A DNA stretch of 64,000 bases from an uncultured Alphaproteobacteria bacterium. GTDB lineage: Bacteria; Pseudomonadota; Alphaproteobacteria; Rs-D84. A model generated the notes under the pieces. That model saw only the letters and a list, made by a program, of their open reading frames with translations. It was not told the DNA's origin and ran no database searches. The DNA lies in NCBI GenBank assembly GCA_944389385.1, contig CALXMC010000004.1, positions 8,254 through 72,253 of the forward strand. Reading direction: 5' to 3'. Every line of letters begins with the position of its first letter. The stretch's first letter is position 1. Of this stretch, positions 18,959-36,295 are shown in pieces. Made by a program: the position numbers and the translations under genes.

Positions 18959-19168
18959 ATGGATTACCAATTCATGAACCATGGGGGACAAGAGAGAGAT
19001 ACAAGACAATACGCCCTGAACAAGGAAGCGTTTAAAGACAGACTGTTTACACCGAAACAATTAGCTGACTATCTTTGTTCGTCTGTTTCGGCATTAAGCC
19101 AATATCGTGCACTGGGGATTGGACCTGCGTACTTCAAGATCGTCAAAATGGTACGTTACCCCAAATAA
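18959..19168 (+). CDS. AlpA/Xis-like HTH excisionase-regulator
   Basis: 69 aa. FTPKQLADYLCSSVSALSQYRALGIGPAYFKI resembles the AlpA-family HTH. Immediately upstream of the integrase. Confidence 0.55.
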   Translation: MDYQFMNHGGQERDTRQYALNKEAFKDRLFTPKQLADYLCSSVSALSQYRALGIGPAYFKIVKMVRYPK

Positions 19169-19266
19169 GTGGCTGGAACAAAAAAAGAAGCGATAAAAAA
19201 TAGCTGTTTCTGCTGGATATTATGTTTTTATCGTGCATTGTGTGTTTGTAATAAAGGAGTGCACAC

Positions 19267-20475
19267 ATGGCAGAACAATGGAAATGCTATACAAAGCCGT
19301 TTCGGGACACTTGGATACATCTGTTGCATTCAGATGTTAACCTGCAGGTCAGCGACGGCACCATCCCAGGATTATTCCTGCGATATTCTGCGGCAACACG
19401 CAATATTCGGTTTTTCCTGGGGTGTAAAATAGATAACAAGAAATGCAATATTTTTATAGGTCGCTACAGAGATTATTCTATCAAAGATATTCGTGACATG
19501 GCGTGGAATATGCGGCATCAAATTGCCCAAGGCGAAGACCCACGCAGAAAAAGAATAGAAGAACAACTGAAAGAAAAAGAAACGCTGGGCGAACAGGTAA
19601 AAGTACTGTTCCCACAATATATGGACAAATATTCCAAAATATACAAGAAGCCACGAACCCAGGATTCTAATTGGGGGCAATATAGATTATATTTAGCGCC
19701 TATGTTTGATAAGCTGTACATACGCCAAATAGAAGAAAAGCATGTAATGGACGCCTATGCCAAGTGGGTAAAGAAAACCTCATTCTCAACCGCGAACAAA
19801 GCGCTGTCTCTGTTCTCTAATTTCTGGGATTGGTGCGAAATGTATAAATACGTAGACCGCAATACAAACCCATGCAAGTATGTCCGCAAAGGTTCAAACA
19901 AAGTTTATAAGCCACAAATACTGGACCAAGACGGTTATCGTGCATTATCGCATGCGCTGGATGTTGGGCCCCAGGTATCTAAAATGCACCCACGGTTATT
20001 CAATGCGTTGCGGGTGCTGATGCTGACTGGGGGTCGTGCGTCTGAAATAACCGGGCTAGAGGTAGAAGAACTTGCGCTTATGCACAAGGTAATACACCTG
20101 AAAGACAGCAAGACCGGCGCCCGGGATGTAAAACTGTCTGACGCAGTTATACCATACTTGCAGGCTGCGCTGGATGAAGCAACCGCACTGGGCAGCAAAT
20201 ATGTATTCCCAGGTGTTGGGAACGAGCACAGACCAATAAACAACATCCGCAAGCCATTTGAATGGGCACTGTCATATGCCAAGCTGCCACATATGCGAAT
20301 ACACGACCTGCGACATTCGTTTATCAGTATGGGTGCAAATATCGGTGAAAATATAGCTGCCATGAAAGAAGCAGCCGGCCATTCCCGTATAACCACCACC
20401 GAAGGATATACCCACATCATGGACAGCAGCACCTATCGTGCCATCAATAACGTTGCAAATGCAATATGTGCCTAA
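19267..20475 (+). CDS. int: Tyrosine site-specific integrase
   Basis: C-terminal catalytic region with R (GGRASE), HDLRHSF, HSRITTTEGYTH (H-x-x-R...Y). 402 aa; true start may be downstream. Confidence 0.8.
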   Translation: MAEQWKCYTKPFRDTWIHLLHSDVNLQVSDGTIPGLFLRYSAATRNIRFFLGCKIDNKKCNIFIGRYRDYSIKDIRDMAWNMRHQIAQGEDPRRKRIEEQLKEKETLGEQVKVLFPQYMDKYSKIYKKPRTQDSNWGQYRLYLAPMFDKLYIRQIEEKHVMDAYAKWVKKTSFSTANKALSLFSNFWDWCEMYKYVDRNTNPCKYVRKGSNKVYKPQILDQDGYRALSHALDVGPQVSKMHPRLFNALRVLMLTGGRASEITGLEVEELALMHKVIHLKDSKTGARDVKLSDAVIPYLQAALDEATALGSKYVFPGVGNEHRPINNIRKPFEWALSYAKLPHMRIHDLRHSFISMGANIGENIAAMKEAAGHSRITTTEGYTHIMDSSTYRAINNVANAICA

Positions 20476-20535
20476 ATGGTGCATGTTGCATTTCAGTAAA
20501 ATAAAAATAGGTTCTGTAAAACCTCTTTTGATTGG

Positions 20536-20569
20536 GGGGAACGGCGACCTCGAGACCTTGTTACACACA
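20536..20569 (+). repeat. ~34-bp imperfect direct repeat flanking the Fic gene (copy A)
   Basis: GGGGAACGGCGACCTCGAGACCTTGTTACACACA versus copy B GGGTAACGGCGACCCCGCCACCTTGCTACACAC (~85% identity). Confidence 0.6.
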
Positions 20570-20692
20570 GGTTTGAAAAATTGGTTCGCAGGTTCGCACT
20601 TTGGGTGTTTTAATAGTAATTACAATATGATAAGTGCGAACCTGGGGTGCGAACCTGGTTCGCACCTAAGAACATATTTCCTTATAAATCGA

Positions 20693-21799
20693 TTATCGTT
20701 TTTCTGGCAAACTATATTTGCGGCCTTTGTTTTGACCGGTGGCAACCAAGAAACCTTTGTTAACCAATGCGACAAATAGTTGGCGTACGCGCTGTGGCGA
20801 CTTGCCCGTTATAGAAATTGCATCCGCAGCAGTAACATAACCCAGCGTGCATAACTTTTCAGCCATAGCGATAAAGAACGTCCGTTCTGTTTTGTTCAGG
20901 TCGTCTATATTCAAATCGCTACATTTATCGCTAGTTATATCGCTAGTTTTTATTTCAGGATTAGCGATATTTATAACCATGTCGTCACCTTTCAGCGAAT
21001 TGTTTTCGCCCAGCAACAGATTTCCAAAGAACAAGTTCAGGTATTTATAGGTCCGTTTGATACCGCGCGGTATATTTTCATAGTTGGCACGAACCAAGGC
21101 ATTGCGAAAATATTCTGCATAATCCTTGAATAATTCGTTATCAGCAGCAAAGCCTTTATTGTGCAGATACTTGATTGCAAATACGGCGATTGTGCGCGTA
21201 TTGCCTTCGCGAAATGGATGAATTTGCCACAGGCCAGACACGAATTGCGCGATATGTTCAACTTGCGCACGTGTGTTAAGCGTACTGTAATCAAAACGTT
21301 CTTCGCGGTCAAAGTCGTATTCCAGCGTTGGCATAATGTCCATATGGCTGGCATAGTGCACAGTATCCCCCATCAGCACGTTTTCTGCCTTGATAATATC
21401 CTTGGTACGAAGATTCCCAACCCAGTGTTCAGGCAATGCCGCATTAAACAAATACTTGTGAATAGACAGCAAAGTAGTCGGCGCAAAGGTAAAAGACGAA
21501 TTGCTTAACAGTTCTGCAATACGGTTGGAAACGGTGTCGGCCTCCCAGTATTCAATACCCAGTTCGTCACCCTCTGGGGTGCGGTAATACTGGCGCAGCG
21601 ACTGATGAACTTCGTCATGACTCAGCTTGCCTTCGATATTATCACGCGCCACCTGGTACAGATAACGCGATGGTGTCAACCCATCAACCTGTTGCAGGCC
21701 AATGGCGATATCCCAATTACGTGCCTTTTCTTGTTTAGATGGCTCTTGGGCTGTTTTGTATTCGCTGATAAAATCTGAAAACTTTGCCATATCTTTCAT
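20693..21799 (-). CDS. Fic/Doc-family protein (AMPylator-like) with C-terminal winged-helix domain
   Basis: Fic motif HPFREGNTRT (HPFx[DE]GNxR). 368 aa. C-terminal wHTH-like segment (LVALVNKGFLVATGQNKGRKYSL). Confidence 0.75.
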   Translation of the reverse strand: MKDMAKFSDFISEYKTAQEPSKQEKARNWDIAIGLQQVDGLTPSRYLYQVARDNIEGKLSHDEVHQSLRQYYRTPEGDELGIEYWEADTVSNRIAELLSNSSFTFAPTTLLSIHKYLFNAALPEHWVGNLRTKDIIKAENVLMGDTVHYASHMDIMPTLEYDFDREERFDYSTLNTRAQVEHIAQFVSGLWQIHPFREGNTRTIAVFAIKYLHNKGFAADNELFKDYAEYFRNALVRANYENIPRGIKRTYKYLNLFFGNLLLGENNSLKGDDMVINIANPEIKTSDITSDKCSDLNIDDLNKTERTFFIAMAEKLCTLGYVTAADAISITGKSPQRVRQLFVALVNKGFLVATGQNKGRKYSLPEKR

Positions 21800-21877
21800 G
21801 CCTTACACTATTGATTATATCCAAGAAATACAAAAATTCCAGTTATTTAATGGGTCCTGTGACGGGCGTTTCATATA

Positions 21878-21911
21878 CGGGTAACGGCGACCCCGCCACC
21901 TTGCTACACAC
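21878..21911 (+). repeat. ~34-bp imperfect direct repeat flanking the Fic gene (copy B)
   Basis: See copy A. The two copies bracket 20693..21799. Confidence 0.6.
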
Positions 21912-21962
21912 TGATAAAAAAACAAGACCGCATGCCGCACTGTCTAATTTCATAAATCAGAA

Positions 21963-21996
21963 TTGATTTCATGTTGATTTCAATATTGATTTCATA
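21963..21996 (+). promoter_or_regulatory. Three tandem TTGATTTCA repeats at ~12-bp spacing in the divergent Fic/Nudix intergenic region
   Basis: ATTGATTTCATGTTGATTTCAATATTGATTTCATAGG. Followed by (AGT)5 microsatellite and a purine-rich tract. Confidence 0.4.
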
Positions 21997-22277
21997 GGTA
22001 AGGAAAGTAGTAGTAGTAGTAAAGAAAAGCAAAAGATAATAAAAATAAAAGATAAAGAAAAGGTAGTGAAAGAAGAAATGCACAAAAAATTGTTGAAAAC
22101 TTACGTAAAACTGTTGATATGTTGTTAGTTATGTCTAAATCATAAAATATCGCAAAATTTAACCTTAAATGTATCGTGGTGTATCTCTATGTATAAACGC
22201 TAAAATCCGCAGAAAATAAGGACTTTACAAACCCAAAAAAACAGTGCAAGATGGTGTTGTAAAGGAAAGGATTCAGT

Positions 22278-22664
22278 GTGAAAGTAACAGCTGCGATTTT
22301 TAGAAATGAGGACCGGGTTCTGCTTATGCGACGGGCGGCTGATCAGCCGTTGGCGGGCGAATGGGAATACCCCGGTGGCAAGTTTGAAGATGGCGAAGAC
22401 GGCCCAACATGCCTGCGCCGGGAACTGGCCGAAGAGTTGGGAATCGATGCGCAAATTGGCGACCTGATTACCATCGCAAAACATACAACAGATTCTGGCA
22501 AGGTTATCGAACTGCACACATACGAAATCAAATCCTTCACCGGCGAAATTCAACTGCGCGTCCACGATGATATGCATTGGGTGCCAGTCCAGGACTTGCC
22601 ATTCCACCCACAACTCCCCGCCGACCAAATCGTATCTAAAACATTACAAGCCAAAGGAAAGTAA
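22278..22664 (+). CDS. Nudix hydrolase (MutT-like)
   Basis: Nudix box GGKFEDGEDGPTCLRRELAEELGI (Gx5Ex7REUxEExGU). 128 aa. Stop 1 nt before next start. Confidence 0.8.
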   Translation: MKVTAAIFRNEDRVLLMRRAADQPLAGEWEYPGGKFEDGEDGPTCLRRELAEELGIDAQIGDLITIAKHTTDSGKVIELHTYEIKSFTGEIQLRVHDDMHWVPVQDLPFHPQLPADQIVSKTLQAKGK

Positions 22665-22665
22665 A

Positions 22666-24642
22666 ATGAGCGACGCTTTCTACAAAAACAGTATTCATAA
22701 CTTTTTGCGCCAAAGCGATGATGAAATCTTTGGTATTATCGCCGCAGGTGACAGATACGACACGGTTGCCGCACAAAAAGACGCCTGGATGGAACAAATT
22801 CGCGTGTTGAAATATGCGCTGGCATACGCGCCATCTGGCAGCATCCTGTTTGAATACACACTGCCACGTGTGGGCGGTCGCATAGATAACATCTTGCTGA
22901 TAAACAATACTGTTTTTGTTTTAGAGTTCAAGGTCGGCGCAGAAACATATGCCAGTGATGCAATCCGCCAGGTTCGCACATACGCATTTGATTTGCAAAA
23001 CTATCATGAAGAAAGTCGTCAGTGTAAAATCGTTCCTATCTTGGTGGCAACAGGTGTACCGGATGACTACCGCAAACACGATATGCCAGAAGATGTAATC
23101 CTGACTGACGGTGATGAATTGCGTAATATATTCATTCGCAACACAGATACTTCGTGCACAACAATCAATATGGACAAATGGGCAACTTCCAGATATGTCC
23201 CAACCCCAACGATTATCGAAGCCGCGGAAATTTTATACAGCAATCACTCTGTTGCGGATATTGCGCAAAATACGGCGGCTGAAAACCTGACCAAAACATC
23301 AGACGCAGTTCAGCGTATAATTGAACATTCAAAGCAGAATAAACAAAAATCTATTTGCTTTATCACCGGTGTGCCTGGCGCGGGTAAAACCTTGGCGGGT
23401 CTGAATATCGCAATTGAAAATCAGAAAACAACAGGGCAAAGTTATTCGTGTTTCTTAACGGGTAATCAGCCACTGGTATCCGTTTTACGCGAAGCGTTGG
23501 CCGCAGACGATCATCGGCAAAACGGTACGCAAATCACAGAAGCCCGCAATAAAGTAAAATCCTTTATCCAGATAATCCACCATTTTCGTGACGCGTCATT
23601 GGAAAATGTGGATGTGCCACCAATCGACAATGTTGTTATATTTGATGAGGCGCAACGCGCATGGGTTCAATCAATGCTATCTGGTTTTATGCAAGAGAAG
23701 AAGGTTGCTGTTCTTAATCGACTGACCAACGAACAGCGGGCACATTTCTTGTCTATGAGTGAACCAGAAATGTTAATTGACTATATGAACCGACACCAAG
23801 ATTGGGCCGTAATCGTCTGTCTTGTTGGCGGTGGTCAGGACATTAACACTGGTGAAGCTGGTATCCAGGAATGGTTCGCGTCATTAAAACGTTCTTTCCC
23901 AGATTGGAATGTTTACGTGTCTGGCGACATAACATCCAATGAATACCTGGGCGATCAATCGTTTACAGAACTGACCGATGGATTGAAATGCGAAACGATT
24001 AAAGAACTGCACCTGTCCGTATCATTGCGTGCACACAGAACATCCGATGTTGCGGGTTTTGTGGATTCTTTGCTGGATAACGATGCCGCAGCCGCCGCAG
24101 AAAAATATAAGCACCTGTCCGGAATTTACCCGATTTATATGACCCGCGACTTGGCGCGCGCCAAACAATGGGTGCGCGAACAGACCGCCGGCAAGGCATT
24201 GCGTCATGGTCTGATTGCCAGTTCAAATGGTCGCAGATTGCGTGCAGATGGTATTTGGATAGAAAGTAAGTGCAAGCCGGAAAAGTGGTTCCTGGGTGAA
24301 CGTGATGATATCAAGTCTTCATACTTTATGGAAGAAGCGGCCAGTGAATTTGATATCCAGGGCCTGGAAATAGATTATGCGGTTGTTGGCTGGGATGCAG
24401 ACTATAGATATGTAAACGGTGAATTCGAATGTTTTAAACCAAGTGGTTCGCGCTGGTTAACAATAAATCAAGAATACAAGAAACGTTATCTGAAAAACGC
24501 ATATCGCGTTTTACTGACACGTGCCCGTGAAGGTTTTGTAATATTCGTCCCACGCGGCGACGCGTCCGACACCACCCGTCAACCAGAATTCTACGACGCC
24601 CTATGGCAATACCTAACCGATATTGGGGTGGAGGAGTTATAA
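22666..24642 (+). CDS. DUF2075-family protein: N-terminal nuclease-like region plus P-loop ATPase/helicase-like domain
   Basis: Start set at ATG 22666 (RBS GGAAAG). Walker A FITGVPGAGKTLAG mid-protein. Walker B-like VVIFDEAQRAW. Overall order matches DUF2075 as I recall it. Confidence 0.6.
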   Translation: MSDAFYKNSIHNFLRQSDDEIFGIIAAGDRYDTVAAQKDAWMEQIRVLKYALAYAPSGSILFEYTLPRVGGRIDNILLINNTVFVLEFKVGAETYASDAIRQVRTYAFDLQNYHEESRQCKIVPILVATGVPDDYRKHDMPEDVILTDGDELRNIFIRNTDTSCTTINMDKWATSRYVPTPTIIEAAEILYSNHSVADIAQNTAAENLTKTSDAVQRIIEHSKQNKQKSICFITGVPGAGKTLAGLNIAIENQKTTGQSYSCFLTGNQPLVSVLREALAADDHRQNGTQITEARNKVKSFIQIIHHFRDASLENVDVPPIDNVVIFDEAQRAWVQSMLSGFMQEKKVAVLNRLTNEQRAHFLSMSEPEMLIDYMNRHQDWAVIVCLVGGGQDINTGEAGIQEWFASLKRSFPDWNVYVSGDITSNEYLGDQSFTELTDGLKCETIKELHLSVSLRAHRTSDVAGFVDSLLDNDAAAAAEKYKHLSGIYPIYMTRDLARAKQWVREQTAGKALRHGLIASSNGRRLRADGIWIESKCKPEKWFLGERDDIKSSYFMEEAASEFDIQGLEIDYAVVGWDADYRYVNGEFECFKPSGSRWLTINQEYKKRYLKNAYRVLLTRAREGFVIFVPRGDASDTTRQPEFYDALWQYLTDIGVEEL

Positions 24643-24646
24643 CCAT

Positions 24647-25480
24647 ATGATTAAAGAATATCCATTGCCACATCCGTTAAAGAATGATGACGTAGACACC
24701 TTAATGAAAAAAATAAGGATGATGGTTCGCACCATGGAATCATTTCACCCTCAGGCTACAAAAGACAAGGCTCTTATGGGGCTACATAGTTTGGTGGGGG
24801 CTATTATTTCTCTGTCGGCAGAGGTTTATGATGCTTTGCAAAATAACAGAGTTTTTGTGGCCAGTTCCATTACGTGCCAAATTTTAGAAGCTGAAATACA
24901 ACTGCTATGGTTAAACAAGCATTTTAATACCAGGGGTAAAGATTTTATAGATTTTGGATATGTTGAACAAATAGAAATGTTATGTGTACACCCAGATCGT
25001 AAAGATAGGGTTTTAGAATTACTGAAGCAAAATAATTGCGACAGATTCTTACGTAAAGGCCTTAAGAATCCAAATAGACTAGATCGTAACAGTTACAACA
25101 AAAAGTGGTATGGTGATACGATACAAAACATATCAGAAGATTATTTCAATCCTGTTTTGGAATCGATTCAAGACACACCAGAGTTGGTTGCATATTATGA
25201 AAACAAAGATATAAACTACGAAAATTATCAACTGTTTTGTGGCTACAAACACTTTTCACCATATTTAGTAAGAAGATTTTTCGCAACAAGTCAATCTTTT
25301 CAAGAAGATGAAAGCAAATATGCTAGGGTGGCGGTTTTGCAAACTGTTTTGAATTCATTACTAAATGTCTGTTTCGTTCTTGAACAACATGGCGATCCAA
25401 TATTGCATATCAAGCCACTCGCAACAGAAGGGTTGGCGCCCGCATCCGCCAAACAAAAAATACAGGAAGAACGCAATTAA
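24647..25480 (+). CDS. Hypothetical protein (operon member)
   Basis: 277-aa ORF starting 4 nt after the DUF2075 stop with RBS GGAGGAG. No recognised motif. Confidence 0.45.
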   Translation: MIKEYPLPHPLKNDDVDTLMKKIRMMVRTMESFHPQATKDKALMGLHSLVGAIISLSAEVYDALQNNRVFVASSITCQILEAEIQLLWLNKHFNTRGKDFIDFGYVEQIEMLCVHPDRKDRVLELLKQNNCDRFLRKGLKNPNRLDRNSYNKKWYGDTIQNISEDYFNPVLESIQDTPELVAYYENKDINYENYQLFCGYKHFSPYLVRRFFATSQSFQEDESKYARVAVLQTVLNSLLNVCFVLEQHGDPILHIKPLATEGLAPASAKQKIQEERN

Positions 25481-25548
25481 CATATTGTTCCCTTGACTTT
25501 ATGGTTTGTTTTGGTCTAACTTTCTTACTGAGGAAAGGTTCAAGAACA

Positions 25549-26529
25549 ATGGAATATGAAATTGATATCAGAGAAAATATGATATTGAGAAAGTGGCCAG
25601 TTTTACTGGATATTCTGTTGTATGATCATACGACAAAAAAAAATATTTTCTGGGCTACAGATTTATATGAAAACCATTATGGTAATAGATACTCATTTAG
25701 GTCTCAAATAAAACCGGAACTTATTACTGGTATAAACGATGGCATAATCAAACCTCGTGTAGCGAAGACTAAGAAAGCACAGCAAGATCGCGTTAAGGAT
25801 AAAGCAGAGGTTTTTACGCCCTCCTGGATATGTAACAAACAAAATAATTTGATAGATAATGATTGGTTTGGTTATGAAGGGGTTTTCAACAAAGAAAAAG
25901 ATGACAACACCTGGATCCCCACTAAGAAGCCTGTTGTGTTTCCAGAGGGGAAAAACTGGGTTGATTATGTTCGTGAATTGCGGTTAGAGGTTGCGTGTGG
26001 TGAGGCACCGTATTTAGTAAGTCGATACGATATTACAACTGGAAAAAAGATAAAAATACCTAATAGAATTGGTTTGCTGGATCGGAAACTCCGCATTATA
26101 AATGAAAATGCAGCCAGTGATAGCGAATGGTTTGCGATGGCAAAATGGGCATTCAAAAGCACATATGGTTATGAATGGCAGGGGGATAATTTATTGCTGG
26201 CTCGAGAAAACTTGTTGTTCACGTTTATTGAGTACTATCAGGATAGATTTGACGAAGAACCGGGATTAGAAATTTTAATGGAGATCGCAGAAATTATTTC
26301 TTGGAATATATGGCAAATGGATGGAATTCGTGGTGTTTTACCGTGTTCTTGCTGTAATTCAAAACATATAGACTTATTCGGTGAAAAAACTAGGGGGGGG
26401 TGTCTTGGTTGTAAAACCGGCGATATTCATAGTCATAACGGTATATATTGCAAGATTCGTGATTGGAATAGCAAAACAAAACGTCCAAAAACATTAACTT
26501 TTGTATCATTGTTAAAGGATATAAAATGA
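25549..26529 (+). CDS. Methyltransferase-like protein with degenerate gamma-class motifs X and I, no NPPY, and a C-terminal Cys cluster
   Basis: EVFTPSWICNKQNNLI resembles motif X of N6-adenine MTases and is near-identical in pattern to EVPTPINVCDNIINLI in the next gene. LEVACGEAPYLV resembles motif I (DPACGxGxFL). No NPPY. C-terminal CSCCN...CLGCK...C cluster. Confidence 0.45.
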   Translation: MEYEIDIRENMILRKWPVLLDILLYDHTTKKNIFWATDLYENHYGNRYSFRSQIKPELITGINDGIIKPRVAKTKKAQQDRVKDKAEVFTPSWICNKQNNLIDNDWFGYEGVFNKEKDDNTWIPTKKPVVFPEGKNWVDYVRELRLEVACGEAPYLVSRYDITTGKKIKIPNRIGLLDRKLRIINENAASDSEWFAMAKWAFKSTYGYEWQGDNLLLARENLLFTFIEYYQDRFDEEPGLEILMEIAEIISWNIWQMDGIRGVLPCSCCNSKHIDLFGEKTRGGCLGCKTGDIHSHNGIYCKIRDWNSKTKRPKTLTFVSLLKDIK

Positions 26530-29500
26530 AAGATTTAAATCTTGATGAAGTTATAGTAGGTAGAGTAGAACCACATATATACGCCTTTACAACGAATACC
26601 ATACCGAACTATTTAAAGGTTGGAGATACATATCGTACTGTCAAAAGTAGATTGGAGGAATGGAAAAAATATTTTCCGAACCTAAAAGCAGAGTTTGATG
26701 GAAGTGCAAAAATATCTGATGGAGTTTTTGTTAGAGATTATTCTGTGCATCAATATTTGGAAGGCGGTATACATAGAGATAGGTTAACGCCAGAGATTTT
26801 AAAGCAAATTTCGCCAGCAGCTTATTTTTCTAAAGAATTTTTTAAAAATGCCACTGCACAAGATGTTAGTGATGCGTTGACTGATATTCGGGAATCGTTT
26901 GCTAATAACGATAACAGGTATAGTTTTTATAATTTAGATCGTATGCCTGTAGTTCACCAGTATGCCTCAACAGGATTCTGGAAGCCTCGTCCAAATCAAC
27001 AAGATACGATAGATAAAATTAAGGAGGCTGTTGAGAAAGGTAGAACCAATTTGCTAATGTATGCAGTAATGCGCTTTGGAAAATCTTTTACAGCCCTATG
27101 TTGCGCAAAGGAAATAAACGCTGAAATCGTATTGGTTGTTTCTGCAAAAGCTGATGTTAAGGAAGAATGGCGTAAAAATGTTCAAAGTGCAGATAATTTC
27201 AGAGACGATTATATTTTTGCAGATGCAAAACAATTGCGAGATGAGGAAGGTTTAATCAAAAACACGCTGGATAATAAAAAAAAGGTGGTTTTGTTTTTGA
27301 CTTTGCAAGATTTGCAAGGAACAGATATTAAAGAAAAACACAAAGAAGTTTTTGATAACAAAATAGATCTGTTAATTGTTGACGAAACTCATTACGGGGC
27401 TAGGGCCGAAAAATATGGTGCTGTTTTGCGTCAAACAAAGGATATAAAGCAAGACTATTCAACAGAAGGTTTTGTAGATATAGAAGAGGCTGATAAACAG
27501 ATAAAGACCCTTAAGGCCAAGATAACGCTACACCTATCAGGAACACCGTATCGCATATTGATGGGCAGCGAATTTACCAAAGATGACATAATTGCTTTTT
27601 ATCAGTTTACAGACATTGTAAAGGCGCAGGAGAATTGGGATAAAGAAAACCTATTAAAGGACGAAGCAGAACCAGAATGGGACAACCCTTATTTTGGTTT
27701 TCCGCAAATGATACGATTTGCGTTTCACCCAAGTACAGTCGCTAAAGCAAAGCTAGACGAGTTAAGGAAGAATGGTGTTAGTTATGCATTTTCTGAGTTG
27801 TTTAAACCAAAATCGATCTATCGTGCAGGTGACGAAAGTCATAAAATGTTTGTCCATGAGTCCGAGATTTTAGATTTGTTCACAGTGATAGATGGCAGTA
27901 AGAACGATAAAAATGTTCTTGGTTTTCTTAATCATGACAAAATCCAATCAGGAAATATGTGTCGCCACATAGTTTGTGTGTTGCCATATTGTGCTTCTTG
28001 TGATGCGCTGGAAAAACTTATACAAGACAATGCAGATAAATTTAAAAACTTGCGGGACTACGAAGTAATAAATATCTCAGGTGTTGATGCTGCTAGAACC
28101 TATAGAGATGTTAATGCTGTGAAGAGAAAGATTAAGGAATGCGAAGCCGATAACAAGAAAACTTTAACTTTGACAGTGAATCGTATGCTTACGGGTAGCA
28201 CGGTTGAAGAATGGGATACAATGATTTTTTTGAAGGATACCGCATCCCCACAAGATTATGACCAGGCTGTTTTTCGTCTGCAAAATCAATATGTTAGAAA
28301 ATATGTTGATCCTAAAACAGGGCAGGAAATCAAATATAACATGAAACCGCAAACATTATTGGTCGATTTCGATCCAAATCGTATGTTTATGATGCAGGAA
28401 TCTAAATCACAGATATATAATGTAAATACGGAAGTAAACGGAAATTCTAAATTACAAGACAGAATCCAAGAAGAATTGCGTATTTCGCCGATTATAACCA
28501 TAAATCAAGACAAAATAAGTCAGGTTGATGCGTCGGATATTATTGATGCAGTTAGCGAATATTCGAGTAAACGCGGTGTCTGGGACGAATCAAAAAGCAT
28601 TCCTGTAGATTTTGAATTATTAAAAGATCAACAGATATTTGATGTAATAAATAGTCAGGGGGAAATTGGATCTAACCAGGGATTGAAGGTCGAAGGAAAT
28701 GTCGGTGATGATGTTGATATTGATGTGCCACCGGTAGAACTTCCGGAACCTCCTGTTGAGCCAAAAGATCCGGCGCCAGTGGTTGCTGTTGAAAAAGACG
28801 ATATGAAAAGTTTGGAAAATAAATTCAAAACTTATTATTCCAGAATATTATTTTTCGCCTTTTTAACAAACAATAAAGTTACATCATTGGATGATGTATT
28901 AAATTGCATCACAAAAGAAGATAATGTGCGTATAGCAAAGAATTTAGGTTTAAAATATCAGATATTGGTTAGCATAAGAAATAAAATCAACAGTTATATT
29001 TTGCAACAGCTGGATTACAAAATATATGATATCAGTAAATTGGCACACGATACAGAGGTTGAGCCTATAAATCGTGCGGAAACGGCATTGATAAAGTTTG
29101 GGCGTTTTTCAGAATCCGAAGTCCCAACGCCAATCAATGTTTGTGACAATATAATAAATTTAATACCAGATGACGCATTTCTGTCACTCAAGAAACAGAA
29201 TAATGCAATGTTGGATATAGCAAGCAAGGCCGGTGAATTTGCGATCGCTATTTGTAAAAGATGTGAAAAGATAGGCATCGATATAGAATCAATAAAAGAT
29301 TCCGTGCTGGCTATACCCACATCATCGGTTGCGTATGAATTTACGCGCAAAGTTTATGAATTTCTTGGTTTGAATATCAATGCGATAGCAGCAGAATTTA
29401 ATAGTTATGATTTGTTGGATGTTAAGATGTTGGACAGACGTGGCAGACCAACAAAGAACATAGATTATGCACGTGTTGCTGCTATATTAAAACAAACTAA

Positions 29501-30593
29501 GCCACTGGATAAAATTAAATTAAATGATAATATTGAAGAAGCAGGAGAAAATAAAATGCAGTTTCAAGCAGTTGTTGGAAATCCGCCATACCAAGAAGCG
29601 CGCCAGAATACTAGTGATAATCCTATATATCATTTATTTATGAATGTAGCATTTCTGCTGAGTAATAAAGCATCATTTATTACGCCTGCTAGGTTTTTAT
29701 TTAATGCCGGTAAAACCCCAAAAGAATGGAACAGGAAGATGCTTGACGATGAGCATGTTAAGGTTTCATCTTATGAAAGAGAATCTAAAAAGTATTTCCC
29801 TCATACCAGTATAAATGGCGGAATTGCAATAACTTATAGAGATACTTCAAAAAAATATGGTGCAATTAAATTTTTTCGACCATATAAAGAAATGGGGAGT
29901 GTTGCAGATAAAATATTGAATTACAAAAACTTTGAAAGCATCAAAGATATGGTTTATCTCCAAAATAAATTTAATTTAGAGGCGCTATATAAAGATTATT
30001 CTAAAGCTAAAACAAAAATTAGCTCTGCTGGTAGCGAAAAGCGAATAGTGTCATCTGCTTTTGAGAACCTTACTGAAGTTTTTTCAGATGTGATGCACAC
30101 AAAAAGTAGTGTTCCTATTTGTGGATTATTCAAGAGAAGAAGGATAGTCAAATACATTGAGGAAAAATATTTAGAACGTGGATCAAATATAGATCATTAT
30201 AAAGTTTTACTTTCTTCCGCTGATGGGGCGAGTGGTACCATAGGCAACCCTGTACCAGCAAGGGTGATTGGAGAGCCAGTTGTGTTGGATGCTGGTGTTG
30301 GATACACTCAGACATTTATTTCAATTGGAGCTTTTAAACGTAAAAAAGAAGCGGATAATTTACAGAAATATTTAAAAACTAGATTTGTTCGTTTCATGGT
30401 GGGGACTCTAAAGGCAACAAATGGGCTTAAGATAGAAGTTTGGTCAAATGTGCCAAAACAGGATTTTTCTGACGCGTCTGACATAGATTGGTCAAAATCC
30501 ATTGCTGAAATAGATAAGCAGTTATACAAGAAGTATGGGCTGGATAAGAAAGAAATTGATTTCATTGAATCTATGATCAAACCAATGGAGTAA
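26526..30593 (+). CDS. Fused GIY-YIG nuclease / SF2 helicase-ATPase / gamma-class N6-adenine methyltransferase / C-terminal putative TRD (Type ISP/IIG-like RM enzyme)
   Basis: N-terminus HIYAF-(9)-YLKVGDTYRTVKSRLEEW fits GIY-(9-11)-YIG...R...E. Helicase motifs I RFGKSFTAL, II LLIVDETHYGA, III LSGTPYRI, VI QAVFRLQN. MTase motifs X EVPTPINVCDNIINLI, I LDIASKAGEFA, IV VVGNPPYQ. ~450 aa after NPPY for target recognition. ATGA overlap with upstream gene. Confidence 0.7.
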   Translation: MKDLNLDEVIVGRVEPHIYAFTTNTIPNYLKVGDTYRTVKSRLEEWKKYFPNLKAEFDGSAKISDGVFVRDYSVHQYLEGGIHRDRLTPEILKQISPAAYFSKEFFKNATAQDVSDALTDIRESFANNDNRYSFYNLDRMPVVHQYASTGFWKPRPNQQDTIDKIKEAVEKGRTNLLMYAVMRFGKSFTALCCAKEINAEIVLVVSAKADVKEEWRKNVQSADNFRDDYIFADAKQLRDEEGLIKNTLDNKKKVVLFLTLQDLQGTDIKEKHKEVFDNKIDLLIVDETHYGARAEKYGAVLRQTKDIKQDYSTEGFVDIEEADKQIKTLKAKITLHLSGTPYRILMGSEFTKDDIIAFYQFTDIVKAQENWDKENLLKDEAEPEWDNPYFGFPQMIRFAFHPSTVAKAKLDELRKNGVSYAFSELFKPKSIYRAGDESHKMFVHESEILDLFTVIDGSKNDKNVLGFLNHDKIQSGNMCRHIVCVLPYCASCDALEKLIQDNADKFKNLRDYEVINISGVDAARTYRDVNAVKRKIKECEADNKKTLTLTVNRMLTGSTVEEWDTMIFLKDTASPQDYDQAVFRLQNQYVRKYVDPKTGQEIKYNMKPQTLLVDFDPNRMFMMQESKSQIYNVNTEVNGNSKLQDRIQEELRISPIITINQDKISQVDASDIIDAVSEYSSKRGVWDESKSIPVDFELLKDQQIFDVINSQGEIGSNQGLKVEGNVGDDVDIDVPPVELPEPPVEPKDPAPVVAVEKDDMKSLENKFKTYYSRILFFAFLTNNKVTSLDDVLNCITKEDNVRIAKNLGLKYQILVSIRNKINSYILQQLDYKIYDISKLAHDTEVEPINRAETALIKFGRFSESEVPTPINVCDNIINLIPDDAFLSLKKQNNAMLDIASKAGEFAIAICKRCEKIGIDIESIKDSVLAIPTSSVAYEFTRKVYEFLGLNINAIAAEFNSYDLLDVKMLDRRGRPTKNIDYARVAAILKQTKPLDKIKLNDNIEEAGENKMQFQAVVGNPPYQEARQNTSDNPIYHLFMNVAFLLSNKASFITPARFLFNAGKTPKEWNRKMLDDEHVKVSSYERESKKYFPHTSINGGIAITYRDTSKKYGAIKFFRPYKEMGSVADKILNYKNFESIKDMVYLQNKFNLEALYKDYSKAKTKISSAGSEKRIVSSAFENLTEVFSDVMHTKSSVPICGLFKRRRIVKYIEEKYLERGSNIDHYKVLLSSADGASGTIGNPVPARVIGEPVVLDAGVGYTQTFISIGAFKRKKEADNLQKYLKTRFVRFMVGTLKATNGLKIEVWSNVPKQDFSDASDIDWSKSIAEIDKQLYKKYGLDKKEIDFIESMIKPME

Positions 30594-30597
30594 CGGT

Positions 30598-30942
30598 ATG
30601 AAAATGTTGCACATTTTTATATTACTTGTATTTCCACTTGCGCTGGTTGGATGTTCTGAACCTGCACCGGAATGCTGGTCGCCTTCTGTAAAAAGCTTAC
30701 TAAAAGATATAGCGAAAGAAAGCTATAACAAGGAAATAGTAGGGTTTGAAGAAGTTGTGGAGATGGAAGTGTTTAATAATGTTACTCCACAAAGACGTGC
30801 TTGCTCAGCCAAACTGGTAACCAAATACAATGAAAAAGAAGCTACATACCAGTATTTTGAGGTAGATTATGTCGTTAGAACCATCCGTGGCGAAAATAAT
30901 ATGTACTACACTTCAGTAACCGATATGCATCGAAAATTATAA
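30598..30942 (+). CDS. Small lipoprotein, hypothetical
   Basis: Signal peptide with lipobox LALVGC. 114 aa. Confidence 0.5.
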   Translation: MKMLHIFILLVFPLALVGCSEPAPECWSPSVKSLLKDIAKESYNKEIVGFEEVVEMEVFNNVTPQRRACSAKLVTKYNEKEATYQYFEVDYVVRTIRGENNMYYTSVTDMHRKL

Positions 30943-30962
30943 GATATAGGATAAGATGAAAA

Positions 30963-31676
30963 ATGGATACATGTAATATTTTGGAATATATTGGCATGGG
31001 AGGCGATTATGTTATTAAAAATATAGTCAAACTTCTTACTAGCTGGCCTTTTATTGTACTGGTTGTGTTTTTTGCGCTCAGAAAATACTTTGTCGCAATT
31101 TTGAAAAAAATAAAAGAAGATTTGCGAGTAAAAGACAACAAATTTTCACTTGGTGACTCAAATCAGCCAGATATTCAAAATAGCACACAAGACAAATTAT
31201 TTGATATTCCTGCAACTACTTCTGATAAGAAGTTAAAAAAGCGTAAGGCAGAATACGATCTTCCAGAATTGCCTGATACGGGCTTGAAGGCTTATACATT
31301 AGAAATAGAAAATAAGTTAAAGAAAGATTTAGCGGAATCGCCGTATAAAAAAATAGATATAATGGTTAGGGATTCGACAAATTATAGGATAGCAACGGAG
31401 TTTGAACGTATATATAGAATTATCTTTGGAAGCCAAATACGATTGTTACGTCATTTGGAAGCAGCAAAAACACTAACAAAAAATGAAGTAGCTAAGTTTT
31501 TCAAACAAGAAAAACGTAAAATGCCGGATAGCAATATTGAATTAGAACCTTGGACCAAATTTGTGCAATCTCAGGGACTGATGGAGTACAAAGATGGGGA
31601 ATATACAATTACAAATAAAGGGTTAGCTTTTATAGCCTATTTAGCCCTTTTCAATTATGAGGATAGGCTGTGGTAA
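30963..31676 (+). CDS. Hypothetical membrane-anchored protein
   Basis: N-terminal TM (WPFIVLVVFFAL). K/E-rich soluble domain. 237 aa. Confidence 0.45.
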   Translation: MDTCNILEYIGMGGDYVIKNIVKLLTSWPFIVLVVFFALRKYFVAILKKIKEDLRVKDNKFSLGDSNQPDIQNSTQDKLFDIPATTSDKKLKKRKAEYDLPELPDTGLKAYTLEIENKLKKDLAESPYKKIDIMVRDSTNYRIATEFERIYRIIFGSQIRLLRHLEAAKTLTKNEVAKFFKQEKRKMPDSNIELEPWTKFVQSQGLMEYKDGEYTITNKGLAFIAYLALFNYEDRLW

Positions 31677-31728
31677 AAATAAAAAGAAAAAATAATGAAT
31701 AAATAGCCAAGTATCATTTTAAATAATG

Positions 31729-32247
31729 TTATATATTAAAAGTAGTAAAAAAATTTTGTAGTTCTTTATCTGAAACAGTGTGTGACAATATATCACTTAC
31801 ATTTTTCAAATTTGTTTTTTCTTTTGGATTTAATCTTTGGTGTCTTAAATTTTCAAAACATTTGCGTATAAGATGCTGTTTGGTGTCCGGTAAATAGGCG
31901 ATGCATGCTAAATGATTATTTTTTCTTTTGTTCATTAAATCAGATTCATTTTCAGTGCAGATTTTTCTGATGTCAAAATGAGAACATCCGGATAAATATT
32001 GTGTAGGTCTGGATGTTAATGAATCTTTTATCAAACATAACCATTCTTTTTCTGTTACAGAAAACGTTAAGCTATGATTTGTATAGTCTTTTGATGTAGA
32101 AACAAAAAAATACAGTACTTCCCGAATAAGAGGCATCCGGTTTATAAATAATTTATATTTACGTTTGCAAACATTTGTGGTTTCTTCTACAGATTGTTCA
32201 TCAACGTAACACCAAAACGGTTGAAAATATTCCATTTTAAGCAGCAT
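31729..32247 (-). CDS. Putative toxin partnered with a Panacea-domain antitoxin (no recognisable family)
   Basis: 172-aa ORF. 11-nt overlap with upstream Panacea gene in operon arrangement. No known toxin motif seen. Confidence 0.4.
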   Translation of the reverse strand: MLLKMEYFQPFWCYVDEQSVEETTNVCKRKYKLFINRMPLIREVLYFFVSTSKDYTNHSLTFSVTEKEWLCLIKDSLTSRPTQYLSGCSHFDIRKICTENESDLMNKRKNNHLACIAYLPDTKQHLIRKCFENLRHQRLNPKEKTNLKNVSDILSHTVSDKELQNFFTTFNI

Positions 32248-32725
32248 ACATATTTAAAACTTCACCCATATGCTCTGTGCCGCCAAGAGTCGCACCAATT
32301 AAAACCATAGGTTTTGTGTTATAGGCTATTTCTGTTAAAGTTTTAGCTCCGTATCCCTGCACATGTTCCAGCATAGTAGAAACAATGTTCAGTTCATCTG
32401 GTGACAAAGAATCTGTTTCTACTGATGTAGGATCGGTAAGATTGTAAACTACGTGCTCGTCGCTTCCAAAGAAACAGGATTCTGCAGATATCGTTCCTTC
32501 TTCGCGCATGTTTTCAAGGTTTTTGTAAATAGTACTATCAAAAGGACCAAAATTCCAACGGATATATTTAAATTCGGATATAGGTTTCCCAATATTGCGA
32601 ATTGCGGCCAAGTCAATCAAGTATGATATTTTTAGCAAACTAGTAACTCCGCGTGGGCCATCACGCAAAATGAGCGCCAAAAGCTGTTTCGTTTTCTGAC
32701 ACATAAAATTTCTCTTTGAGTTCAA
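32237..32725 (-). CDS. Panacea-domain (DUF4065, GepA/SocA-like) putative antitoxin
   Basis: KQLLALILRDGPRGVTSLLKISYLIDLAA...ISEFKYIRWNFGPFDSTIYKNLENM fits the DUF4065 pattern (LQKLLYLAD...W.YGPV...Y). Confidence 0.5.
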   Translation of the reverse strand: MNSKRNFMCQKTKQLLALILRDGPRGVTSLLKISYLIDLAAIRNIGKPISEFKYIRWNFGPFDSTIYKNLENMREEGTISAESCFFGSDEHVVYNLTDPTSVETDSLSPDELNIVSTMLEHVQGYGAKTLTEIAYNTKPMVLIGATLGGTEHMGEVLNMYAA

Positions 32726-33216
32726 TGCAATTATAACACATTATGTTAAAATTATAAAAGCATAAAATTAGGTTTTTAGAAAAATAGGACTAAAAAATAA
32801 AAAAAGCAACAAAAATATCTCGTTGCTCATGCTGACAATTATACCATAATTTGCTTAAAAAGTCAATAATAACTAGTTGTTGGTCACGAAAATATGGACT
32901 TGTAATAACTTGACATCTGTGTCAACTTGTGCTGGATGCGGCGGGGCAACCATGTCTGCCGGCATGTTAGGTTGCCGTTGTTTGTTCTGCGGATAGCTCC
33001 AACTCGTGTAATGATCGGCATGCTGCGAAATAAAGCATAATAAAATCCGTCTTATTACTGGGCTCAATTTCTCGAAAATGTTTGTACTTCATAGACAATC
33101 CTTTTAAGGTTGTCGTATTTGGCATAATCTTTCGTCACTTGCCCAGTCATTTGTTGTAACTAAAGGATATTGCTTGTTTTTCAATTTTTTGGTAATTTGG
33201 AACAAAAGGGGACAAA

Positions 33217-34017
33217 ATGGCAGATTATAAGGAATATCTGGATAAAATAAGAAATTCGCAGTTGTTATATTTTGATTCATTTCCATTGGATATGACGTCT
33301 TGTGAATATAATGTGCATTTGTTGTTGAATAAAATGGCGGAAGCAAGAAAGTCATACCTTTTGCTAATGGATAATGAACGATTTACGGATGCTATGTTGG
33401 TGGCAGGACATTTGCTAGAGAATGCAGCGGTGATCAATTATCTTTCTGCTAGCTTGCAAGAAGCTAATACAAAACAAATAAGCAAATATCTGGCACGAGA
33501 AACGGTACAAACTCTATGTGATTTATTCAAATTTGTAGGCGATGATAATGTGGATGCGGAAACTCAAGAAAATATAGATTTTATAATGGATGATTTTAAG
33601 AATAGATGCGACATAGTTGTATCGAAAAAAGCGGAACAAAGTCACGAAGAATTGGTCCAGACTATATTGATGGCTATGACAAATTCGGAAAAATTAAGAA
33701 TTATAAAAAATAATTACGAATTTCCGGTGGTTGAAGATTATTTGAGGCCGTTTAGGAAAGATTTATCAAATTTTTATGGTTTTTCCGGTATTGATAAAAA
33801 GCTTGTGTTGTTTTATTCGTCATATTGCAAAATAAAACACTGCGGGGCGGCTATGTATGTGCCAGTTCTATGCAAAGATATGGTTGTTATGAATAAAAAT
33901 CAGTACAGAGGCCTTAGCCCTATAGTTGTCTGGATGTGTTTGGAATACACAGAAAAGAATATAAAAAATATATTGTCAAAAATAAAACCAGAATTAGGAT
34001 TAACAGCCAAAAACTAG
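33217..34017 (+). CDS. Hypothetical protein (266 aa), convergent with reverse transcriptase
   Basis: Clean ORF. No recognised motif. Confidence 0.4.
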   Translation: MADYKEYLDKIRNSQLLYFDSFPLDMTSCEYNVHLLLNKMAEARKSYLLLMDNERFTDAMLVAGHLLENAAVINYLSASLQEANTKQISKYLARETVQTLCDLFKFVGDDNVDAETQENIDFIMDDFKNRCDIVVSKKAEQSHEELVQTILMAMTNSEKLRIIKNNYEFPVVEDYLRPFRKDLSNFYGFSGIDKKLVLFYSSYCKIKHCGAAMYVPVLCKDMVVMNKNQYRGLSPIVVWMCLEYTEKNIKNILSKIKPELGLTAKN

Positions 34018-34034
34018 ATGTTTTTTATAACGTT

Positions 34035-35576
34035 TTAATTTATTGGTTTATTGATAAGTGTTGTTATAAATTTGTTAAGTTCCACATCTTCTGAGTCTAT
34101 AATCTTTTTAACGCGTTCAAAATGTTTTCGCATTTGTTTTTTCAATGTGATATCGCCCATATCGTCAAAGGCTCTATTGACATAGGCCCAGAAAGTTCTT
34201 TTGCCTAGGTGTGTGTAATTCCTATATAAACTTCTCCTGTATAGTTTGGTTTTGATTTGTTTGGGGGCTTGGCCAGCTTCGACCAATCGTTTAATTTTGT
34301 TTTGTGTTGCTAAGCGCATGGATCTAATACCACGTTTGGATTTCCGTAAATATCTTGCCATACTAGAACCACGAATTTTTATGTCTTTGCCATCAAACGT
34401 GAATCCTAAATATTGTAAAGGGTCTTCGATTATTCTGTCAGAAGTAAAATCATAACATTTGCTTTTAGATTTTTTATTATCTTCGATTTGATGTATTGAT
34501 AAATATTTTCCTTGTTCTTTGATGGTTGTCATAATATGTCGGCATATATCTTCTTTTGAATCTTTATCGCATATAATCAAAATATCATCAGAATAACGTC
34601 TGTATACGGCACCATGGTTATTACAAAATTCATTCATGGATTTATCAAATGGCAGCATATAAATATTCGCTAATAACGCCGAAAGGGGAGAACCTTGCGG
34701 AATACCATATGGTGCATCTGTACCTTGAACACCAGGGTTAACATCAAATGTATGATTGTTGATTTTTTCTTTATTACAGATTTTTTGGTGTTGTTTATAC
34801 CATTGTCTAAATTTATGGAAATCGGACATATTGTTAAATAATTTTTGCGGTAATTTATATCCCCTTCGCAACGGGCAGTTTAAACAGGTTTTTGCAGTTG
34901 GAATACAATGCATACATTGCAAATACATTTTTATGATGTCAATATCGATGAAACTGTATTTAGTCAGTGTTTTATAAATATTGAAATGATCTGGTGGTAG
35001 GGTGTCGCAAGCGTCATCTCTACTAAGGAGCGCAGCCCATTGTTTTTTTAGGTTTTTATGGTCAATATAGTCATAAAAACTTTTTATATCGAATGCGAGA
35101 GCTAAGCAGTTGTTTTTTCTGCTTTTTATTATATCAAATACTTCTCGTGCAAAAGTAATATTATTTGCGACTTTTTGCATGTGTTTGGACTTACGGTATG
35201 CTAATACCACATCACCGAGCCCCAATTTTGAGAGCTTTTTTTCATATAAATCATACAATATAGTTGCATAATATGAAAAAATCATTGAATCAAAATGGGC
35301 GGCATATCTGATTGGACGTTTTTTTACAATAGATTGTTGTTGGTCTCTTGGCGTGGTTTTATCTATTTTAGATACGCGCCGTTCTTCAATGTCATACCCA
35401 ATAAAAGGCAGAAAGGGATGTTGGGCTATTTTATTGGCATTGGTTATATACTCGATAATGTTCTTAGCTGCGCTAGATATTGTGCCGTTTGGTAATCTGT
35501 ACGCGTTGATTGGAGCATCAATATGTTTATATTTTTTTCTATTATTATAAAAAAAAGATTCCCAATCAAATTCCAT
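34035..35576 (-). CDS. Stand-alone reverse transcriptase (defence-associated/Abi-like or retron-like; unclassified)
   Basis: RT motifs: motif 1 KKRPIRYAAHFDSMI, motif 2 LALAFDIKSFYDYIDH, motif 4 GIPQGSPLSALLANIYM, motif 5 YRRYSDDILI (YxDD), motif 6/thumb LQYLGFTF. ~90-aa insertion with CxxC...CxxC between motifs 2 and 4. No maturase or endonuclease domain. Confidence 0.75.
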   Translation of the reverse strand: MEFDWESFFYNNRKKYKHIDAPINAYRLPNGTISSAAKNIIEYITNANKIAQHPFLPFIGYDIEERRVSKIDKTTPRDQQQSIVKKRPIRYAAHFDSMIFSYYATILYDLYEKKLSKLGLGDVVLAYRKSKHMQKVANNITFAREVFDIIKSRKNNCLALAFDIKSFYDYIDHKNLKKQWAALLSRDDACDTLPPDHFNIYKTLTKYSFIDIDIIKMYLQCMHCIPTAKTCLNCPLRRGYKLPQKLFNNMSDFHKFRQWYKQHQKICNKEKINNHTFDVNPGVQGTDAPYGIPQGSPLSALLANIYMLPFDKSMNEFCNNHGAVYRRYSDDILIICDKDSKEDICRHIMTTIKEQGKYLSIHQIEDNKKSKSKCYDFTSDRIIEDPLQYLGFTFDGKDIKIRGSSMARYLRKSKRGIRSMRLATQNKIKRLVEAGQAPKQIKTKLYRRSLYRNYTHLGKRTFWAYVNRAFDDMGDITLKKQMRKHFERVKKIIDSEDVELNKFITTLINKPIN

Positions 35577-36219
35577 TGTTATAACCCAACAGCAAAATAC
35601 CCGGGAGACGCCAGGTTTGCGCTAACCATTTGAGACGTCTCTCGTAAACCTTGATTCTACTAAGCTGTGCTCAGTTTGGCTGGTCATCCTTGCTGTTCAC
35701 GCAAAAGTACACGCATAAATTATCAAAGGTTCTATATTTGTCGTAATGAACGTTATTATGAACCAAGGGAGGTCTTGATGATATTCGCACAAATCTTGTT
35801 TAAATGCTTCAATATTCAAGTTTGCCAAGATTCACTGGTCATAGTATTCTTTGCGTTGCAATGGATACTTGACTTCGTTTATTCGATCCCCCTGAACCTA
35901 AAGAACAGGGCAAATTAAATATAATTTTCTTTGGCAGGATTTCAAGTGGTTGAAATGATTTTTTTACGGTATTTGGTTTAGTTTTTTGTAACATAAATAT
36001 AAAACTTGCATTATGTTCAAAATATGTAGACAATCTTACTGATTGAAAAAGCATAAGTTATTCATAAGACGACGGATAGGTTACGGATCCTGTGTAGCTA
36101 TTGTGTAGCCAGAGGGGTGTTTTATGGCGTATTTTGGTGTATCGTAGTATGCGTAAATACAGAAGTGTTAATTTAAGAAAAATGCCGCAAACCTGCGGGG
36201 TTTACGGCGGAAATTCTTG

Positions 36220-36295
36220 GCTCGGGCAACTGGACTCGAACCAGTGACATACGGATTAACAGTCCGTTGTTCTACCGACTGAACTATGCCCGAAC
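36220..36295 (-). tRNA. tRNA-Asn (anticodon GTT), CCA encoded
   Basis: 76 nt: TCGGGCA TA GTTC AGTCGGTA GAAC A ACGGA CTGTTAA TCCGT ATGTC ACTGG TTCGAGT CCAGT TGCCCGA G CCA. Cloverleaf folds with GTT anticodon. Confidence 0.85.

Follow-up and report, generated by a model that had tools for sequence, protein, structure and literature searches.

A candidate Panacea-domain antitoxin gene and a putative toxin gene of predicted MazF-like fold on an integrative island of an uncultured alphaproteobacterium

We analysed a stretch of 64,000 nucleotides from an uncultured alphaproteobacterium (contig CALXMC010000004.1, positions 8,254 to 72,253; below, the window), concentrating on two adjacent genes of its minus strand. 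The first gene, panA (32237..32704), encodes a candidate antitoxin with a Panacea domain, and the second, panT (31729..32247), encodes a putative toxin. As called, the open reading frames (ORFs) occupy 32725..32237 and 32247..31729 and share 11 nt (32237-32247). A sequence-only reading of the same DNA had described them as a Panacea antitoxin coupled in operon fashion to a protein of no recognised toxin family, a candidate new toxin fold. Both ORFs and their overlap are indeed present, with starts that may be refined.

The called panA frame of 162 aa starts at a TTG codon (32725). However, panA almost certainly begins at the ATG at 32704, which gives a product of 155 aa ending at the TAA codon 32239..32237. 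This start is favoured by the lengths of the orthologues (151-159 aa) and their N-terminus MCQKT, by the Shine-Dalgarno-like AAGAGA read directly from the minus strand (32711..32716), 6 nt 5' of the ATG, and by the position of the predicted promoter. The latter is a sigma-70-type candidate found by a consensus scan on the minus strand (32730..32758, TTTATA-17-TGtTATAAT, 10/12). The TTG codon lies just past its -10 box and thus would fall within the 5' leader; this start was dropped. The promoter prediction itself is weak, as the region is AT-rich and contains fewer promoter-like sites than shuffled controls. An imperfect inverted repeat (32725-32736 / 32752-32763) flanks the predicted promoter and is a possible, although weakly supported, operator.

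The junction of the two genes, ATGCTGCTTAAAATG (32233..32247, minus strand), was read directly from the sequence. With its preceding codons it runs ...TAT GCT GCT TAA A ATG GAA..., and the panA stop codon sits between two candidate starts of panT, the ATG at 32247 (172 aa) and the ATG at 32235 (Met5, 168 aa). Use of the second start would produce the configuration TAA-A-ATG with a gap of 1 nt. The choice between the starts is ambiguous, since close relatives divide between them. Four of six close relatives (P0002-P0004, P0006; 168 or 161 aa) have the second-Met start, whereas the most divergent ones, in loci L003 and L005, lack the second Met, and there the overlapping start must serve. Whichever start is used, the layout suggests tight translational coupling of panA and panT.

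PanA matches the Pfam family SocA_Panacea (PF13274, the DUF4065/Panacea pattern of the sequence-only reading) with E = 3.3e-13 and 51 bits at a gathering cutoff of 25.7, over positions 1-109 of the 113 positions of the profile. Weaker matches are the PADLOC defence candidate PDC-M19A (E = 4.9e-5) and PHROG 1281. Since its N-terminus contains no added helix-turn-helix (HTH), PAD1 or ZBD domain, PanA is a standalone Panacea protein. The signature of the Panacea domain is the conserved GPV motif, which is reported to be critical for neutralisation (Kurata et al. 2022, PMC8832971). The corresponding fragment of PanA is W-N-F-G53-P54-F, where G53 and P54 are invariant in all nine aligned orthologues and the third position of the signature is occupied by F or Y, not V. 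The approximately 25 residues that follow the Pfam match, with the pattern P-M-x3-G-A-x-L-G-G-x-E-H-M-G-E-x-L-N, are strongly conserved in the PanA subfamily and form a candidate toxin-contacting element. No relative of PanA was found by tblastn against plasmids.

PanT belongs to a rare family, so far seen solely in metagenomes and metagenome-assembled genomes (MAGs) of uncultured bacteria. On the level of sequence, the earlier statement that it belongs to no recognised toxin family holds: there are no significant matches in Pfam, NCBIfam, PADLOC, PHROGs or among PDB chain sequences. A word-indexed search in 5.8 billion proteins produced only six relatives, all metagenomic and all unnamed. An exhaustive phmmer search in 1.84 billion representatives at 50% identity produced 36 clusters of the family at E <= 1e-3, and 35 of these matches are 120-184 aa long. 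All 30 clusters that were looked up are annotated as "hypothetical protein" or unnamed and come from MAGs or metagenomes, including a Candidatus Parcubacteria MAG. A tblastn search with PanT against plasmids gave one match of chance level.

The alignment of the family, A2, consists of 38 sequences; P0023 (585 aa, five matched stretches) was excluded. The core motif is D-x-K-S-x-E-x2-T-G-x2-K-[RP]-K-Y-K-L, followed by FFVLTS, E-W, S-Y-x-D and a conserved lysine. Residues K30, Y31, K32 and W69 are invariant, and S19, T24, K28, F47, D92 and K107 are conserved in at least 92% of sequences. None of the 38 members has a meaningful match in Pfam at E up to 0.05, and the family profile finds neither a relative nor MazF in the PDB.

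The structure prediction that had been proposed as a check produced a confident model of a known fold. The AlphaFold2 model of PanT, built with alignment A2, has a mean predicted local distance difference test score (pLDDT) of 87.4 and a predicted template modelling score (pTM) of 0.81. It contains strands 12-20, 27-37, 44-51, 61-65, 88-100 and 113-118, helices 101-109 and 121-134, and the less confident helices 141-154 and 160-169. In this model, residues from about 10 to 135 form the core, an SH3-like barrel of the MazF/PemK fold with an insertion after beta4, and residues from about 140 to 172 form a C-terminal helical extension of approximately 40 aa, which is peculiar to the PanT family. 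The order of elements relative to MazF is beta1-beta4, insertion, beta5/6, beta7, C-terminal helix.

In the Foldseek search of this model against the PDB, ranks 1-39 are all occupied by endoribonucleases (RNases) of the MazF/PemK/EndoA/MoxT type, with probabilities 0.99-1.00 and target TM-scores of 0.55-0.73 (0.65-0.73 for the top matches). The best match is MazF-mt3 of M. tuberculosis (5HKC, E = 5.5e-5), and the top matches, which also include S. aureus MazF and B. subtilis EndoA, have E from 5.5e-5 to 1e-3. The type III toxin CptN appears at rank 40. Among viral models (BFVD), the best named matches are PemK-like proteins and an endoribonuclease. Thus the suggestion of a new toxin fold is not supported, and the absence of a recognised toxin family holds for the sequence of PanT and fails for its predicted structure. 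Given the MazF-like model and the documented Panacea-MazF pairs, the putative toxin is best described as a new, divergent family in sequence whose fold and pairing are both known.

In the PanT model, the conserved polar residues S19, E21, K28, K30, K32 and T51 map to the loop joining beta1 and beta2, the beginning of beta2 and the end of beta3. In a register based on secondary structure only, T51 (82% conserved, end of beta3) would correspond to the catalytic threonine of MazF, and T51 and K28 (92% conserved, 23 residues upstream) have the same spacing as R25-T48 of B. subtilis MazF and R29-T52 of E. coli MazF. In the same register, S19 and E21 in the beta1-beta2 loop resemble the S/E pair of MazF. 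This arrangement in the model is suggestive of a possible active site formed by these six residues.

The pairing of the two genes is strictly conserved. In all nine considered genomic contexts, a PF13274 gene encoding 151-159 aa is located directly upstream of the panT-family gene, and the flanks are unrelated. The contexts span 25-100% PanT identity and comprise the window and loci L001/L002, L003/L005, L006-10, L011-13, L014-15, L016-18 and L019-21. At the lowest identity, 25%, the pair lies between argS and ileS (L006-10, P0036). Elsewhere it adjoins an IS1595 transposase and type IV secretion genes (L011-13, P0043), follows a type III restriction-modification (RM) system and precedes HipA (L014-15, P0009), is situated between an integrase and an EcoRV-type RM system (L016-18, P0044), or resides in a housekeeping region (L019-21, P0053). 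The junctions vary from the 11-nt overlap to a 5-nt gap. In agreement with the operon-style coupling of the sequence-only reading, panT is the conserved and apparently translationally coupled partner of panA.

PanA and PanT have diverged together. Their pairwise identities co-vary with Pearson r = 0.90 over ten pairs, the points not being independent, and across these pairs PanA is better conserved than PanT. Comparison with relatives yields ratios of non-synonymous to synonymous substitution rates (dN/dS) of 0.05-0.10 for panA and 0.13-0.23 for panT, so both are under purifying selection. The low dN/dS and the synteny in distant genomes indicate that panA and panT are genuine genes rather than chance ORFs. 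In eight of ten pairs, an acidic PanA (isoelectric point, pI, of about 5) is combined with a basic PanT (pI 8.2-9.9); in the window the values are 5.0 and 8.6. The basic pI of PanT is as expected of a toxin predicted to bind nucleic acids. Co-divergence, purifying selection, the acidic/basic pairing and strict linkage are together characteristic of type II toxin-antitoxin (TA) pairs that are mobile and self-contained.

The relative from horse gut (locus L005, an alphaproteobacterium) carries a second, different Panacea pair at 3773-4694. It consists of a 180-aa PF13274 protein (E = 6.8e-15) and, after a gap of 1 nt, a 125-aa protein without Pfam or PADLOC matches.

In the published in silico procedure, Panacea toxin-antitoxin (PanAT) pairs were defined as genes at most 100 nt apart, conserved in this architecture in at least two species and not embedded in a larger conserved operon (Kurata et al. 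2022, PMC8832971). By its spacing, its occurrence in nine contexts and its unrelated flanks, the window pair falls within this definition. The two genes likely make up a bicistronic PanAT module of type II; its toxin is probably an RNase, and a function in abortive infection is possible. The operon would be transcribed from the predicted promoter at approximately 32758..32730, and synthesis of PanA and PanT would be translationally coupled. We infer that PanT is held inactive through direct binding by PanA. If PanA disappeared, were titrated away or changed state in response to a trigger (phage infection, for example), PanT would be freed; being presumably a sequence-specific endoribonuclease, it would cleave RNA and block translation, with growth arrest or abortive infection as the outcome. 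The pair could thus act as a defence element or as an element stabilising the island at the tRNA-Asn gene in which it resides.

This scheme is modelled on characterised systems. A standalone Panacea domain neutralises its toxin directly, whereas in proteins with added domains neutralisation is delegated to the latter; a role of Panacea as a sensor has been proposed as a hypothesis (Ernits et al. 2023). All tested PanA proteins neutralised independently of ClpXP and Lon and formed stable complexes, and two PanTs recognised as PemK/MazF-like by HHpred only proved toxic in experiments, inhibited translation specifically and could be neutralised by PanA (Kurata et al. 2022, PMC8832971).

Several observations weigh against this interpretation. 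The Pfam family PemK_toxin (PF02452) has no match in the window PanT (E up to 0.1) or in the 38 sequences of the family (E up to 0.05). Alignment of A2 by hhalign with a shallow profile of three sequences, MazF, EndoA and Kid, gave a probability of 0.1%; the template sequences were supplied, the EndoA one being verified against the PDB, and a search intended to deepen the MazF profile gave almost only near-identical NdoA sequences. The catalytic arginine of MazF is not conserved: position 29 of PanT is variable, and lysines K28, K30 and K32 are retained. The MazF/CcdB fold houses non-RNase toxins as well, such as the gyrase poison CcdB. The single-sequence structure model of PanA had a pLDDT of 39 and was discarded. 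The argument for a role in defence is one of neighbourhood association, and contexts L006 and L019 are housekeeping regions. Finally, of 25 PanT candidates tested in E. coli, 8 had no toxic effect (Kurata et al. 2022, PMC8832971).

The loss of the arginine and the undetectable sequence homology to MazF would also be explained if the module were genuine, with a PanT of MazF fold that is not an RNase and hits gyrase in the manner of CcdB, the replication clamp in the manner of SocB, or some other target via its C-terminal helices. The fold is common to gyrase poisons, the host is an alphaproteobacterium, as are nearly all listed hosts of the SocB cluster (T10), and the C-terminal extension of about 40 aa, with its conserved hydrophobic C-terminus, has no counterpart in MazF. 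However, CcdB is absent from the top 50 Foldseek matches in the PDB, ranks 1-39 being taken by the MazF endoribonucleases described above, and PanT has no Pfam match to the CcdB family (PF01845). Nor is there any NCBIfam match, and the name SocB does not occur among the 30 clusters looked up. The N-terminal QPFW, which resembles a clamp motif, is limited to the closest PanT subfamily, and the conserved basic face of beta2 together with the basic pI suits binding of nucleic acids. We consider a non-RNase target unlikely.

A more speculative version goes further. The PanT family may have branched off within the MazF fold and acquired a function of its own, with a lysine-based site (K28/K30/K32, Y31, T51, D92) or with no catalysis at all; its C-terminal helical module would set a new target or provide a new hold for the standalone Panacea domain. 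PanA would then sense phages, and the pair would be a new system of abortive infection, characteristic of uncultured lineages with small genomes (for example, gut Alphaproteobacteria and Parcubacteria). Taken as a whole, this proposal is rather doubtful.

The frequency of non-toxic candidates, approximately one third of predicted PanTs in E. coli, bears on another explanation, namely a conserved operon that is not a TA system. The protein of MazF fold would be non-toxic, for instance regulatory or RNA-binding, and Panacea would be its partner in this other function. Toxicity of PanT is a prediction, and the canonical catalytic residues are not obviously retained. On the other hand, just two genes are strictly linked across unrelated flanks, on mobile elements and beside RM systems. 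A patchy, rare distribution combined with a toxin-type fold is what TA and defence modules usually show. A non-TA operon therefore seems improbable.

If the type II module with a probable RNase is confirmed, an unnamed and very divergent toxin family of the MazF fold will join the partners of the hyperpromiscuous Panacea domain. This would not be a new class of biology, as publications of 2022-2023 already covered Panacea pairs with MazF-like toxins and the way in which they act. Combinations of Panacea with PemK/MazF-like toxins have been catalogued as clusters T5, T6 and T9 (Dataset S1), pairs from Pseudomonas moraviensis and Bifidobacterium ruminantium have been validated, and some of the published PanTs were labelled PemK/MazF through HHpred only, having no match in conserved-domain databases (Kurata et al. 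2022, PMC8832971). Like the window pair, these PanATs have the Panacea gene first, a small overlap or gap, and a toxin of the MazF/PemK fold. The validated PanTs of this type are toxic, complexed with PanA and block translation. However, the published T5 and T6 toxins have HHpred probabilities of up to 99.5% to MazF/EndoA, whereas the window family shows no signal against the small MazF/Kid profile.

The new element is the sequence family itself, which is unnamed, missed by the family libraries and so far confined to uncultured lineages, and which may be distinct from the 88 published PanT clusters. Family accessions HNV97467.1 and MCX6739462.1 do not occur among the entries listed in the NetFlax supplements, and the entries listed in the Kurata dataset include no "Alphaproteobacteria bacterium". 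Alignment A2 could seed a Pfam or PADLOC model of the family. More generally, hypothetical partners of Panacea may be resolvable through structure prediction, and a standalone Panacea domain combined with a well-understood fold would make a compact system for studying neutralisation.

The canonical MazEF and PemIK (Kid-Kis) systems share with the window pair the core fold of the toxin (Foldseek E = 5.5e-5, target TM-score up to 0.73), the antitoxin-toxin order and the combination of an acidic antitoxin with a basic toxin. In the secondary-structure register, candidate basic and threonine residues of PanT may also take the positions equivalent to the MazF active site. The antitoxins are different: MazE and PemI have AbrB/SpoVT or ribbon-helix-helix (RHH) domains, and PanA has the Panacea domain. 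The toxins differ in that PanT does not match PF02452, has at best conserved lysines for the catalytic arginine, and carries extra C-terminal helices. Due to these helices and the insertion after beta4, the PanT family is longer, 150-185 aa compared to approximately 110-120 aa in the MazF proteins considered.

The other relevant system is SocAB of Caulobacter crescentus (type VI, PanT cluster T10). It has in common with the window pair the Panacea domain, present in SocA, the alphaproteobacterial host and the order of antitoxin and toxin. However, SocB binds the clamp and blocks replication, and SocA is a ClpXP adaptor, whereas the fold of PanT points to RNases. By analogy, PanA might be a proteolytic adaptor delivering PanT to ClpXP, so that toxicity would arise when proteolysis fails. 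SocA, the founding Panacea protein, acts in this way in an alphaproteobacterium, and one mode does not have to preclude the other (Kurata et al. 2022, PMC8832971). Nevertheless, neither ClpXP nor Lon was needed for any of the PanA neutralisations tested, which involved stable complexes; direct neutralisation has been demonstrated for the standalone Panacea domain (Ernits et al. 2023). Overlapping genes with the antitoxin first, and an acidic protein paired with a basic one, are common traits of type II systems, and homology to SocB could not be shown. Thus the adaptor mode is very improbable, and direct neutralisation within a type II module is retained.

The pair resides on an integrative island of approximately 18 kb (18246..36293), delineated by the tRNA gene, a direct repeat and Pfam and PADLOC assignments. 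The island is located at a tRNA-Asn(GTT) gene (36218..36293, minus strand), and a direct repeat of 62 nt, which corresponds to the 3' half of this tRNA (18246-18307 / 36210-36271, 90% identity), marks its edges. This is a typical integrative defence island. A tyrosine integrase gene (19267..20475) is adjoined by a gene for a Fic-domain protein (20693-21799, minus strand; PADLOC PDC-S72, 323 bits). A Fic gene adjoins the integrase also in the unrelated PanAT-bearing loci L016 and L017.

These genes are followed on the plus strand by a Schlafen-group-3-like helicase gene and an overlapping DUF5677 gene (22567-25480; SLFN-g3_helicase, E = 2e-72; PDC-S41, 830 bits), which may be a two-gene defence candidate. 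Further on the plus strand are a type II methyltransferase gene (25501-26529, 372 bits) and, overlapping it by 4 nt, the gene of a type IIG RM enzyme of 1355 aa (26526-30593; PADLOC REase_MTase_IIG, 1281 bits). RM systems adjoin panAT in four other loci too (named as L001, L002, L005, L014 and L016-18). A role of the pair in defence or abortive infection is plausible because RM systems flank it here and in these four loci.

Between the type IIG gene and panT, convergent with the latter, are genes for a 114-aa lipoprotein-like protein and a 237-aa membrane protein (30598-31676, plus strand). The 237-aa protein has an N-terminal transmembrane helix and a weak C-terminal match to a winged helix. 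In close relatives these genes have 70-76% identity and also face panT (L001 1878-2952; L002 1541-2260; L005 8506-8886). They come after the local RM system irrespective of its kind, which is type IIG in the window and type III in L001/L002. As third components of the TA system they were ruled out: they are absent from the distant panAT contexts, and thus probably lie outside the module.

Beyond panA, a 266-aa ORF (33217-34017, plus strand) has no matches in Pfam, PADLOC, NCBIfam or PHROG and is 95% identical in OZ007020.1. The latter, a 958-kb circular chromosome of an uncultured alphaproteobacterium, is the closest genome record. Its PanT is 100% identical to that of the window and the neighbouring genes are 95-99% identical, so it represents a very close relative, not necessarily the same genome. 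The next gene encodes a DRT2-type defence reverse transcriptase (34035-35576, minus strand; PADLOC Drt2, E = 6e-126, 419 bits). DRT2 systems require an upstream non-coding RNA as template. An Rfam scan of 31-37 kb detected the tRNA-Asn only and nothing in the region upstream of DRT2; the 640 bp from the start of the reverse transcriptase gene to the tRNA (35577-36217) are the obvious place for this RNA.

Between panA and the 266-aa ORF there is a remnant of a decayed gene of approximately 150 aa (32896-33092, minus strand), frameshifted and lacking its C-terminal half. An intact copy is located just upstream of panA in L001 and L003 (tblastn in two frames, 46-52% identity). The interval between the remnant and panA (32804-32866, minus strand) contains a near-consensus promoter, TTGACT-17-TGgTATAAT (11/12), followed after approximately 10 nt by an 11-bp terminator hairpin with a T-run, so that a very short transcript is expected. 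This structure could be a terminator left behind by the decayed gene, or it could encode a small RNA.

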